From a virus (lineage: Duplodnaviria > Heunggongvirae > Uroviricota > Caudoviricetes), in the IMG/VR virus record IMGVR_UViG_2724679538_000004, positions 32,001 to 96,000 of that record: DNA of 64,000 nucleotides. The stretch is one strand, 5' to 3'. Positions 38,700 to 41,304 of this stretch are shown in pieces. Position 1 is the stretch's first letter. Every line of letters starts with the position of its first letter. The position numbers and the translations under genes are program-made. Under the pieces are notes generated by a model, which was given only the letters and a program-made list of their open reading frames with translations, made no database searches and was not told the origin of the DNA.

Positions 38700-39325
38700 G
38701 CACGGTAGCGAAAGATCTCACAGAAGATATTCTCAATGAAATTATTGCTGGCGCGAATACCTCGCTTGAACAATATCTTGCGTTGGCGCTAAGAGCCGAA
38801 CGTCGAGACAGAAAGCATTTTTATGAGCGATTACCAGGGAAGCGACCAGATAGATCAGATGAAGAAGGTAGCGATATAGACTACATGGAACCTTTAGATG
38901 TTTATCAACTTGGTAAAGATGATGGCTGGAACGCTTATCACGATGCTGTGTTGAAGTTGGATGAAAAAGTGAAACCTCTTTCGCGACCAGTAGATCACGG
39001 TTTTCGCGATAACTGCGAGTGCTCTAGTTGTCAGATCACGGCTCGTATTTGTTCCGAATTAACAGATAAGTCCACCCTAATCTACGAAGTTAATGTAGGC
39101 GGTAATACATGGGTCGAATGCACAAGAGCTGCATACGTAAGAGCAAAAGACAACGGCGAATTGACCAGAGTTGTTACCCATCACCCAAATAATGTGCTTA
39201 AAGATCACCAGATTCGAGAACTAGTGAATGAATTGCGGGATATTGCGGTTACGTATCACGGAACGCAGCAATTGCGGGAGAAGATTGCCAGAGCAGTGAA
39301 CAACTCAATCCGTCCAGAAAAATAA
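38696..39325 (+). CDS. hypothetical protein
   Basis: 209-aa ORF, ATGA overlap with previous gene. Confidence 0.5.
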   Translation: MSTVAKDLTEDILNEIIAGANTSLEQYLALALRAERRDRKHFYERLPGKRPDRSDEEGSDIDYMEPLDVYQLGKDDGWNAYHDAVLKLDEKVKPLSRPVDHGFRDNCECSSCQITARICSELTDKSTLIYEVNVGGNTWVECTRAAYVRAKDNGELTRVVTHHPNNVLKDHQIRELVNELRDIAVTYHGTQQLREKIARAVNNSIRPEK

Positions 39326-39329
39326 GTAA

Positions 39330-39795
39330 TAGTACGATAAAGAGGCCCCATGCTCTTGATGGGGCCTGTAGCAACAAGCGTTATGGACGTTGGTTTACGT
39401 ACTCAATGATCGCTTTGATAATCGCGAACATCGGCGGCACGATTTTGAAAAGTAAGTTAAGCATAACAGGCCTCACTTAGTTTTATCGCGCCTAGCTGCA
39501 AATACCTTTGAGCTTGCCTTTGCAGTTGCAATATCTGTAGTCGCCAGATACTTACGGCACGATTTCGAGTTAAGGTAAGGTTTGAGAGTCACCAAAAACC
39601 TGGACTTAAATCTTCTTTGAGAACAATGATGTTTAGTAAATGGTCATTGTTACTAGGTATGACCACTCTACGTTTCTTGATGAATCCAGTACATTCGGTT
39701 AATCTTAACTCAGTCGCCAGATACTTATGGCTCAGGAACAGAGACGCAAACTCCGTTTCCTTTTAAAAAGCCCGGTCTAGTCAACTGGGCTTTTT
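39330..39795 (+). ncRNA. candidate non-coding RNA locus ending at a rho-independent terminator (hairpin 39769-39791 plus T-run)
   Basis: No ORF of 60 aa or more in any frame; direct repeats AGTCGCCAGATACTTA(C/T)GG at about 39537 and 39712; hairpins at 39341-39367 and 39495-39526. Confidence 0.3.
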
Positions 39796-40090
39796 AATGT
39801 CTGCTTTTTAACCAAACATACCCTCAATACTGCAACATCAGTGTCTTGCGAATCAAGATAGTGTGTATAGATTTTTCATGCAAGTGCATAAGTCTGTGGA
39901 TAACTCAGGAAGGAAAAAGTGACTTCCGCGCACTTTAGGCCGGACAAGGCCTTCGAAAAAGTCAATGGGAAGAAAAAATTTGTTAAAAATAACGTTTGTT
40001 TGAATTGTATATTTTATACCTGTCAATAGTTAGCATCTTATTAACATCTTTTTTAAGAGACAGAGTTTAAAAACATGTCGCTCCAACATA

Positions 40091-40110
40091 TACTGTATGT
40101 ACATACAGTA
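40091..40110 (+). promoter_or_regulatory. LexA operator (SOS box) TACTGTATGTACATACAGTA
   Basis: Perfect CTGT-N8-ACAG palindrome 17 bp upstream of the humD-like start. Confidence 0.85.
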
Positions 40111-40126
40111 TTAAGAGGCGAGTATT

Positions 40127-40516
40127 ATGGGATTCCCATCTCCTGCAGCGGATTATGTTGAAAGCCGTATTTCTCTTGATCGGCAGATAATTAGACATCC
40201 TTCAGCGACCTACTTCCTGCGAGCGGCTGATAGCCATCACCGCGAAGGAATATTGCAGGGGGCGCTGCTGGTGGTCGATTCTTCACTAACTCCGGTTGAT
40301 GGTTCACTGCTTGTATGTGCTATTGATGGGGAATTTCGTGTAAAAAAATACCGTAAGTATCCGCGTCAGTACCTGGAGGATTTAAGAACTGGCAAGAAGG
40401 AAGCATTGCCAAAGGATGACGATGGATGCACTGGCAGTACTGCCGTGTTTGGTGTCATCACTCACATTATCAACGACGCAAGAAGTGGCGAATTTGATGA
40501 TTGTCCTGTGATGTAG
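40127..40516 (+). CDS. humD: UmuD'-like protein (P1 HumD-like; begins at the position equivalent to the UmuD cleavage site)
   Basis: N-terminus MGFPSPAADYVE matches UmuD residues immediately after the Cys24-Gly25 cleavage site; conserved VDGEF(R/T)VKK; preceded by a LexA box; no umuC neighbour. Confidence 0.8.
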   Translation: MGFPSPAADYVESRISLDRQIIRHPSATYFLRAADSHHREGILQGALLVVDSSLTPVDGSLLVCAIDGEFRVKKYRKYPRQYLEDLRTGKKEALPKDDDGCTGSTAVFGVITHIINDARSGEFDDCPVM

Positions 40517-40560: not shown

Positions 40561-41304
40561 TCACTGCATGTTGCCGAATTTTTTGTTAAGGCTTTTTCGT
40601 ATTGTCTCTATGGTTTTCTCCCTATCTGAATATAGTTCGCTAACTACATAGTCCATAATCTCAAAAGCACCTTCGATATCTTTGATCCGAACTTCATCAA
40701 ACGTATGACTGCCTGCATTCCCCAAGAACTTTATCGCCAAAAGATTTTGAGCAAGTTTGCTGCCCTCTTCCGGGATTTTTTCGATACGATGGTGCAATCG
40801 GATTGTCTTACCTTTATCATTTTGCGTAGGTATCCCCATAGAGGTAAGGATATTTTCTACAGCGATTCTGATTAGGTTTGCTGCGGCACCTTGCTGCATT
40901 AAAAAAATGGAAAAAGCAGCTTTCAGGGGGCCACTTACTTCATCCGGGCAGTTCTCTGGAATTTGAAAAACATTCAAGGAAGGAACAAAGCAAAGAGGTT
41001 TGTACCATTGATAATATTCGTCTGCCATTTCCTCTGGTTGGTAATCTCTATCCCATCCTGCCTTTCCTACGCAGGCAACCGCTTCGCCACATTTTGCTCG
41101 TGAACATTTGGCCATACAGCTGAAATAGGACTCAGACATATCGTAATCAAACCAATCTTCATTTTGTGCTTTCCTGGTACCTAAAGACTCCTCTTCAACA
41201 AAACTATCTTGCATGATTTCCAGAGTCTTTTGTCCGCAGACCGGACAAGGCCAGTCCACATGTTTATCGCTGTAAAATCGATGGGAAATTTTATGAATAG
41301 CCAT
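40561..41304 (-). CDS. zinc-ribbon protein with C-terminal HEPN/DUF4145-like segment (tentative)
   Basis: N-terminal CPVCG ... CMAKCSRAKCGEAVAC zinc-ribbon pattern; C-terminal LLAIKFLGNAGSHTFDEV resembles the R/K-x-x-G-N-x-x-x-H helix pair of DUF4145-type HEPN domains; only reverse-strand gene in its neighbourhood. Confidence 0.5.
   Translation of the reverse strand: MAIHKISHRFYSDKHVDWPCPVCGQKTLEIMQDSFVEEESLGTRKAQNEDWFDYDMSESYFSCMAKCSRAKCGEAVACVGKAGWDRDYQPEEMADEYYQWYKPLCFVPSLNVFQIPENCPDEVSGPLKAAFSIFLMQQGAAANLIRIAVENILTSMGIPTQNDKGKTIRLHHRIEKIPEEGSKLAQNLLAIKFLGNAGSHTFDEVRIKDIEGAFEIMDYVVSELYSDREKTIETIRKSLNKKFGNMQ

Follow-up and report, generated by a model that had tools for sequence, protein, structure and literature searches.

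Positions 39330–40090 of a 64 000-nucleotide stretch of viral DNA (the window; positions 32 001–96 000 of IMG/VR record IMGVR_UViG_2724679538_000004), which is part of a P1-like plasmid prophage, were divided into their parts by homology searches. Judged from these comparisons, the region is three separate things: a module at 39343–39797, an nrdA-type promoter at 39854–39933 and the promoter of a humD gene at 40066–40110. The module is probably a self-contained unit in which a small RNA (sRNA) would control the synthesis of a small peptide, resembling type I toxin–antitoxin systems of the divergent, trans-pairing kind. The region is 92–93% identical to the Escherichia phages Cyrano and CMS-2020a, and about 85 E. 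coli plasmids, non-mobilizable and each roughly 100–135 kb long, match it at 90–99% identity. Plasmid NZ_CP104619.1 of E. coli AHM9C68I, for instance, reaches 99.5%, and pECOH89 is another such plasmid.

An earlier reading of the bare letters (the original prediction) had described the region as a non-coding sRNA locus upstream of a humD-like gene, with a transcript that could start after the gene ending at 39325 and stop at a terminator at 39769–39795. Every sequence feature that it listed was found in the DNA, namely several hairpins, the hairpin-plus-T-run terminator, direct repeats AGTCGCCAGATACTTA(C/T)GGC at 39539–39558 and 39712–39731 (spacing 173), a DnaA box with the exact consensus 9-mer TGTGGATAA at 39895–39903 and, to the right of the region, the humD-like gene (40127–40516, 88% identical to P1 HumD). 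There is also no open reading frame (ORF) of 60 aa or more over 39330–40090 in any frame; the longest have 57 aa (39853–40026, minus strand) and 49 aa (39617–39766, plus strand). Three features had been missed: a 27-aa ORF on the minus strand, a terminator hairpin at 39343–39367 and a perfect LexA box at 40091–40110. The module contains the following features.

39343–39367, minus strand: terminator hairpin at the predicted 3′ end of the peptide mRNA, AGGCCCCAU...AUGGGGCCU and then CUUUAUCGU (terminator scan)
39464 to 39381, minus strand: small ORF of 27 aa, MLNLLFKIVPPMFAIIKAIIEYVNQRP (‘type B’), ATG at 39464–39462 and stop codon at 39383–39381 (ORF listing and sequence)
39471–39474, minus strand: Shine–Dalgarno (SD) motif GAGG, 6 nt upstream of the ATG (direct sequence reading)
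39485–39563, minus strand: structured core of the leader (RNAalifold consensus of 18 distinct leaders)
39563 to 39556 with 39492 to 39485, minus strand: helix P1, formed by AUCGUGCC and GGCGCGAU and enclosing P2 and P3
39551 to 39531, minus strand: target hairpin P2
39525 to 39496, minus strand: hairpin P3, CUGCAAA/UUUGCAG
39539–39558, minus strand: repeat copy 1, the predicted sRNA target in the leader, GCCGUAAGUAUCUGGCGACU in the mRNA, 75–94 nt upstream of the ATG
39574–39601, minus strand: 5′-proximal leader hairpin AGGUUU/AAACCU, with the alternative GGUGA/UUACC
39604–39670, minus strand: variable spacer, in which the peptide mRNA would have its promoter and its 5′ end
39677–39705, plus strand: predicted sRNA promoter, −35 TTGATG (39677–39682), 17-bp spacer, −10 TAATCT (39700–39705)
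39712–39795, plus strand: candidate antitoxin sRNA of about 84 nt, consisting of 5′ seed, stem-loop 1 and terminator (fold and covariation)
39712–39731, plus strand: 5′ seed of the sRNA, identical with repeat copy 2, in a GCCA/UGGC mini-hairpin
39734–39761, plus strand: stem-loop 1 of the sRNA
39763–39797, both strands: intrinsic terminator UUAAAAAGCCCGGU...ACUGGGCUUUUUAA with a 14-bp stem (covariation)

Homologs of the module were gathered by pattern scans of public collections and with an nhmmer profile, which gave 47 copies with 30 distinct cores. A metagenome scan with a 16-mer returned mostly chance single matches and a few loci that were real modules.

Each of the 29 unique modules whose left flank is complete contains an intact peptide ORF. 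It occurs as two paralogous types, A (for example MQMLLLFLKLAHPVAVIIMTLLGYWKDR) and B (for example MVALLLKIVPPMFVIINAIIEYVNQRP), which align without internal gaps; a module has one or both, many loci carry A and then B in tandem behind one leader, and the window carries B only. Variation is dominated by the third codon position, with 12, 6 and 22 variable sites at positions 1, 2 and 3 in type B and 13, 5 and 20 in type A. The ratio of nonsynonymous to synonymous variation (pN/pS) is 0.27 for type B and 0.22 for type A, and between the window and one homologous locus (L023) pS is 0.52 and pN 0.05. By these signatures the 27-aa ORF is a protein-coding gene under purifying, protein-level selection. 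A conserved small protein gene in homologous regions was what the original prediction had itself named as speaking against it, so its description of the region as non-coding is refuted. The hairpin behind the gene has nine pairs, six of them G–C, and was called on the minus strand only, the plus strand being without a T-run; homologous modules likewise end there with a G+C-rich hairpin.

The peptide has a grand average of hydropathicity (GRAVY) of 0.85 overall and 1.56 over residues 2–21, and ends in the aromatic and charged sequence EYVNQRP. In length and composition it agrees with the description of type I toxins as short hydrophobic peptides of 20–60 aa with an aromatic or charged C-terminus (Fozo et al., 2010, PMC2887945; PMC8594479). 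Six peptides of the family gave no Pfam-A or NCBIfam family at E ≤ 10, and searches of PHROGs with family peptides gave only noise (E about 0.1). A HMMER scan of 1.84 billion protein representatives returned only two clusters, both ‘hypothetical protein’ in viral metagenome-assembled genomes. The family hidden Markov model (HMM) scored TisB, DinQ, ZorO, ShoB, Ldr, Ibs, Fst and Hok no better than shuffles, a comparison that is supportive only. Literature searches with peptide and seed sequences as strings found no paper in the library searched.

The candidate sRNA begins 6 nt behind a conserved promoter, which in relatives reads TTGAAG-17-TAAGCT. In 22 unique upstream sequences no insertion or deletion occurs in the hexamers, in the 17-bp spacer or in the 6-nt gap to the seed, and the sequence upstream of the −35 hexamer is unconserved. 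The 84-nt RNA folds at −30.3 kcal/mol as a single sequence (z = −4.1), and the consensus of 22 distinct sRNA sequences (alifold) consists of a 5′ mini-hairpin that presents the seed, a stem-loop and the terminator. The sRNA is 97.1% paired (slid controls: 31–59%) and has a covariation score of 0.25 compared with 0.154, and one terminator pair is split 11 G–C to 11 A–U among the 22 sequences. Because an A-run precedes and a T-run follows its stem, the terminator is predicted to act in both directions; it forms the right border of the conserved module. This comparative evidence supports a candidate sRNA ending at the 39769–39795 terminator. The predicted sRNA locus is thus kept in part: an RNA stopping at this terminator, whose promoter and 5′ seed are conserved and whose structure covaries, is retained, but with a length of only about 84 nt (39712–39795) instead of the roughly 450 nt of a transcript beginning after 39325. 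Rfam, a search of which had been proposed with the original prediction, contained nothing relevant at gathering score to the module in the window or at nine homologous loci, and no antitoxin family, out of the 13 for type I systems that it holds (PMC8594479), was matched. At E ≤ 10 only sub-threshold terminator-type noise was obtained over 39250–40200, with no OrzO match, and a tRNA scan found no tRNA.

The leader consensus consists of the 5′ hairpin, the closing helix, the target-loop hairpin and the CUGCAAA/UUUGCAG hairpin. In it 97.1% of cells are paired compared with about 40% in slid controls, none of 500 shuffles reached the observed values and seven pairs have changed on both sides. The P2 loop presents the 3′ part of the target on a stem GUAUC/GAUAC, which in a Klebsiella locus (L007) has become GUUAAC/GUUAAC. 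Since 71 of the 592 leader cells are G·U, the plus-strand RNA would pair at only 85.5%. In the 5′-proximal hairpin three of the six pairs show compensatory changes (AU to GC and UA to CG, in either direction), with G·U on the minus strand only; its two crossing stems were treated as alternatives because an H-type pseudoknot seems sterically unlikely. Compensatory base changes, for which a comparison had been suggested earlier, were accordingly found in the sRNA and the leader, as well as between seed and target. The comparison shows both the leader and the sRNA to be conserved, covarying structures on the strands assigned to them. In the minimum-free-energy (MFE) fold of the window mRNA the SD motif lies in a local hairpin with codons 3–5 and would be partly sequestered.

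Candidates for the promoter of the peptide mRNA in the window are GTCATA-17-TTTACT, a weak match from a position-weight-matrix scan, and TGTACT-17-TAGAGT (39693 to 39665), picked out by eye. Several homologs have better promoters, which end 10–16 nt before GGUGA, and the candidates are inconsistent between lineages. A lineage-specific hairpin in the spacer (39651 to 39622) keeps its pairing in Cyrano through G·U on the minus strand only, which hints at an mRNA start near 39658.

A third partial repeat (CGGCACGATTTTGA and CGGCACGATTTCGA, 39435–39448 and 39555–39568) places the leader strand of P1 a second time inside the ORF, at codons K-I-V-P. In relatives its synonymous sites vary, so the repeat is probably lineage-specific or due to chance. 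The copy at 39435–39448 and the MFE fold of the window had suggested a structural switch, in which sRNA binding frees GGCGCGAU to lock the SD motif. This idea was rejected: blocking the target changes the predicted SD accessibility in almost no locus, and the partner inside the ORF varies at synonymous sites in relatives.

The two copies of the direct repeat link the sRNA to the leader. They are 20 nt long with one mismatch, and the window contains two matches with at most three mismatches where shuffles give an expectation of 0.01. As the genes point away from each other, the two RNAs made from a direct repeat would be complementary, so that copy 2 as the seed could pair with copy 1 as the target. 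Among homologs the pairing extends over 20–24 nt and the copies have changed together in at least five lineages: at six positions in L007 (…GCCGGTTAACAAC…), from TC to CT in L008 and L010, at two positions in L025, at one in L009 and at two in the type found in the window. In 12 distinct seed/target combinations 96.2% of cells pair, values that none of 500 shuffles reached, and nine of the 24 positions carry compensatory changes in both copies. All 12 differences between the copies at positions 2–20, which fall at four positions, have C or A in copy 1 and T or G in copy 2. They can form G·U only if copy 2 is part of a plus-strand RNA and copy 1 of a minus-strand RNA; with the opposite strand assignment pairing falls from 96.2% to 88.5%. 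The distance from the target to the AUG is kept at 69–76 nt in 17 loci. Compared in this way, seed and target co-evolve, and by sequence the locus encodes a candidate small RNA complementary to the mRNA of the putative toxin, as a type I system does. No similarity is found beyond the 20–24-nt repeat (z about 0). This stop at the repeat borders argues against a simple duplication or a gene-conversion tract, and because of the same value outside the repeat the idea was rejected that the sRNA gene had arisen by duplication of a longer part of the leader and then diverged.

These strand assignments bear on the single long non-coding RNA of the original prediction, which would run on the plus strand from after 39325 to 39795 and contain the repeats as internal motifs. 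The lack of an ORF of 60 aa, a terminator that the scan predicts to work on the plus strand and a promoter-like plus-strand site matching 9/12 at 39394–39422 agree with such an RNA. That site, however, lies inside the peptide ORF and at chance level (three sites compared with 2.9 expected), whereas a conserved promoter stands directly upstream of copy 2. The leader pairs better on the minus strand, the minus-strand ORF shows codon-position bias and a low pN/pS, and the differences between the copies are wobble-compatible only under opposite transcription. A long plus-strand RNA is thus very improbable. The comparative evidence has the rest of the module outside the sRNA transcribed from the minus strand, and the repeats are no longer parts of one RNA but the seed of the sRNA and its target on the oppositely transcribed mRNA.

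The repeats might instead act at the level of DNA, for example as iterons or as operators to which a protein binds, or be left over from a small mobile element; the ORF would then be fortuitous. Two 20-bp sites 173 bp apart would suit this reading, as would the position of the module within about 1–2 kb of repA/repB genes in some Citrobacter plasmids. There are only two copies, however, no protein gene travels with them and the repeat search reported no terminal inverted repeats at the module ends; the differences between the copies are strictly G·U-compatible in one orientation, the flanking RNA structures covary and the ORF is under purifying selection. The probability left to a DNA-level role is very small.

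For the type I-like module favoured here, what is said below on transcription and on where the mRNA starts, as well as on repression, on toxicity and on the biological role, is inferred. The minus-strand mRNA, of roughly 260–320 nt, would begin between about 39658 and 39604 and would carry, in order, a structured leader of about 140–190 nt, the peptide gene and the hairpin at 39367 to 39343. The promoter at 39677–39705 would produce the sRNA of about 84 nt on the plus strand, the 5′ seed of which would pair with the target in the leader. By analogy with OrzO/zorO and IstR-1/tisB, the duplex may block ribosome loading from an upstream standby region and/or draw cleavage by RNase III. The peptide would be made only once the short-lived sRNA is lost, and would then be expected to insert into the inner membrane and stop growth. 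A plausible role would be stabilisation of the plasmid prophage or another function in conflicts of phage-plasmids.

The sRNA and the small membrane peptide might both be real without being a toxin–antitoxin pair, with a benign peptide (for example one that modulates a membrane function of host or phage) the synthesis of which is tuned by the sRNA. The coding signature, the sRNA and the pairing fit this equally well; the hydrophobic stretch of the peptide contains charged residues, and YhzE-2, a candidate of Fozo et al., was not toxic when overproduced (PMC2887945). Against it, the module moves as a unit, accompanied by no further gene, among plasmids and phage-plasmids that are unrelated, two paralogous peptides often stand in tandem, the long structured leader and the far-upstream pairing site are as in toxin mRNAs, and such dedicated, co-evolving repression is typical for dangerous products. 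A benign peptide is therefore considered rather unlikely.

Several points weigh against the toxin–antitoxin interpretation. The hexamers of the sRNA promoter are only moderate matches, below the 9/12 threshold of the consensus scan, and no promoter could be confidently assigned to the peptide mRNA, the best candidates in the window reaching only 7/12. The invariance of P3 was partly forced by the pattern used in the homolog search. Gene conversion, or one DNA-binding protein acting on both copies, might in principle also make the repeats co-vary; of these data the G·U asymmetry alone is specific for RNA, and it is based on about four to five independent events. Two lysines and one glutamate lie inside the hydrophobic stretch, so the peptide may be amphipathic and not a classic transmembrane helix. 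Finally, Rfam, Pfam, NCBIfam, PHROGs and the HMM comparison with toxin sequences gave no detectable homology to known toxin or antitoxin families, so that the type I assignment is made from architecture only.

The stretch at about 39370–39801 is common to plasmids of Citrobacter, Enterobacter and Klebsiella (67–76% identity) and to viral contigs, and the flanks outside it are unrelated. It is almost never annotated in those plasmids, and the neighbouring genes are unrelated. The same stretch is without annotation in 114 of the 5426 complete E. coli genomes (about 2%; 105 places on plasmids and ten on chromosomes) and in about 90 PLSDB plasmids. By its distribution the module is mobile and sharply bounded. 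The most divergent seed/target pair mentioned above, that of L007, comes from Klebsiella pneumoniae plasmid NZ_CP143910.1 (261 kb, conjugative, IncFIB), where the module copy lies beside an IS3-family transposase; because it differs from the common type at six positions it would be a naturally orthogonal variant. Another conserved non-coding block was seen about 20–150 nt to the right of the sRNA terminator in loci L005–L010, L022, L023, L025 and L030 (for example at 2800–2950 of L006). The window lacks this block of non-P1-type hosts (…ATAAATACTACATATAGG…TATATGGTGAGTATTCTAGTA…TTTTCAGTACAAGAGTTGATTTTAAGGTTAAATTGAGG), which matches nothing in Rfam and lies upstream of repA/repB in some plasmids.

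The other two parts of the region lie between the module and humD.

39854–39933, minus strand: captured nrdA-type promoter, with DnaA box TTATCCACA (39903 to 39895), −35 TTGCAT (39882 to 39877) and −10 TATCTT (39859 to 39854)
40066–40110, plus strand: humD promoter, −35 TTTAAA and −10 TATACT (40089–40094), overlapped by LexA box TACTGTATGTACATACAGTA (40091–40110) (promoter scan)

In every one of the 5426 complete E. coli genomes, positions 39854–39933 find an 84% identical counterpart in the same orientation on the chromosome, 113–192 bp upstream of nrdA. Its DnaA box and −10 hexamer TATCTT are the same as in the window, the −35 hexamer is TTGCAT here and TTGCAA there, and the homology stops right after the −10. 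The DnaA-box 9-mer by itself is not beyond chance (two in the window compared with 0.46 expected). Only 39876–40128 of the region resembles P1 and P7; within it, 39876–39978 is homologous (76%) to a P1 site annotated as ‘nrdA-like promoter’ and ‘dnaA box’ (GenBank M95666; upfN/upfO region), and neither the DnaA box nor the −35 hexamer varies among P1, P7, Cyrano and the window. The copy in the window, with its identical −10 TATCTT, is nearer to the chromosomal nrdA promoter than that of P1, and differs also in that the bidirectional terminator of the module follows after about 50 nt. By sequence, the promoter to which the DnaA box belongs, in the window as in P1, was captured from nrdA of the host. 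The box had earlier been counted with the sRNA locus, whereas it belongs to this separate, already annotated promoter, which points the opposite way. Other hosts lack the promoter beside the module, so it is a neighbour of the module and no component of it.

The nrdA-type promoter is directed at the terminator ending at 39797, and an RNA of about 85 nt is predicted on the minus strand (39847 to 39763; −24.2 kcal/mol, z = −2.9). In the model the sRNA terminator would be complementary to the 3′ end of this RNA, and a readthrough product would be antisense to the sRNA over its full length. It is distinctly unlikely that the module represents a new type I toxin family that is specific to plasmid prophages, typically has two paralogous peptides per sRNA-controlled leader and is wired here to the captured nrdA promoter. 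If such wiring were true, the promoter would transcribe head-on into the antitoxin gene, the replication or deoxynucleotide status of the host would set the balance of toxin and antitoxin, and maintenance or induction of the plasmid prophage would be linked to the host cell cycle.

The LexA box over the humD promoter is a perfect box of 20 bp with the CTGT-N8-ACAG pattern, and the repeat search gave a perfect 11-nt inverted repeat there. P1 and P7 are annotated with a LexA site at the equivalent place before humD, and in P7 only half of the box is kept, next to an IS903 insertion. Downstream of humD, where P1 has phd-doc, the window has an unrelated gene for 247 aa (40561–41304, minus strand) and phage Cyrano has MinD-like and MetRS-like genes, which makes this a variable cargo site. 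Elsewhere in the window, positions 665–1083 on the minus strand give a full-length match to the Rfam cspA thermoregulator (RF01766, 185.7 bits), so the plasmid prophage carries a cspA-type cold-shock 5′ untranslated region.

Type I families are usually missed by annotation, and T1TAdb lists 24 type I toxin–antitoxin families (PMC8594479). The unannotated module is common: about 2% of complete E. coli genomes have it on P1-like phage-plasmids, and plasmids of Citrobacter, Enterobacter and Klebsiella carry it too. Should the peptide be toxic, the module would be a candidate for a determinant that serves maintenance or conflict in plasmid prophages, which often carry resistance genes. The natural seed/target variants, of which there are at least five, could be used for studying the specificity of trans-acting antitoxins.

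Known systems of the divergent subgroup (ShoB/OhsC, TisB/IstR-1, Zor/Orz and DinQ/AgrB) have the antisense gene 5′ of the mRNA gene, non-overlapping and within 300 nt, and an interaction of at least 15 nt located in the leader (PMC8594479). The predicted layout here is the same: the sRNA would start at about 39712 and run rightward, the leader would start at or left of about 39658 and run leftward, and the 20-nt pairing lies in the leader. The closest parallel is with zorO-orzO/zorP-orzP of E. coli O157:H7, in which a small hydrophobic peptide (29 aa compared with 27 aa here) is likewise accompanied by a divergent sRNA gene that does not overlap the mRNA, and in which tandem duplication also occurs. 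The 5′ end of OrzO pairs over 18 nt, 73–91 nt upstream of the zorO start, and its action requires RNase III but not Hfq (PMC3919570); the predicted pairing here covers 20 nt at 75–94 nt. The peptides, in contrast, have no detectable similarity (ZorO was at shuffle level against the family HMM, and Pfam and NCBIfam gave no match). The paralogous peptides here usually share one mRNA, one leader and one sRNA, whereas complete loci are duplicated there, and the module is found on phage-plasmids and plasmids and not at a fixed chromosomal site.

With tisB-istR-1, as with dinQ-agrB and shoB-ohsC, the module shares an sRNA 5′ end that would pair far upstream of a partly sequestered ribosome-binding site. 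It differs from them in that no sequence or Rfam similarity was found and in that its family is on mobile elements, while those systems are chromosomal in E. coli. Both tisB and dinQ are controlled by LexA; inspected by eye, the module sequence shows no LexA box, and the one nearby belongs to humD. At tisB the sRNA covers the ribosome standby site (PMC3919570).

The par system of Enterococcus pAD1 (fst/RNA II) is plasmid-borne like the module, and T1TAdb notes for it an interaction outside the overlap region. Its RNAs are convergent and share a terminator, whereas those of the module are divergent. In par, as in the module, complementarity arises from direct DNA repeats that are transcribed in opposite directions. 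The proline in the helix of the peptide and its charged C-terminal tail are loosely like what we take to be LAAPILAGIITAAIVSWWRNRK of Ldr, a likeness that serves as a lead only. The module differs from the Fst/Ldr superfamily in that it matches no Pfam or NCBIfam family and in that Ldr and Fst fell within the shuffled range against the family HMM. P1 phd-doc, a type II system directly downstream of humD in P1, shares the P1-type neighbourhood and a presumed role in plasmid-prophage maintenance; its mechanism, with a protein antitoxin, is wholly different, however, and the module lies upstream of humD. The P1 genes phd, doc, hot and lxr were not found in the 64-kb window. Taken with these likenesses and differences, the best reading of the sequence is that the module constitutes a new family of the type I toxin–antitoxin-like kind, outside every curated family compared.

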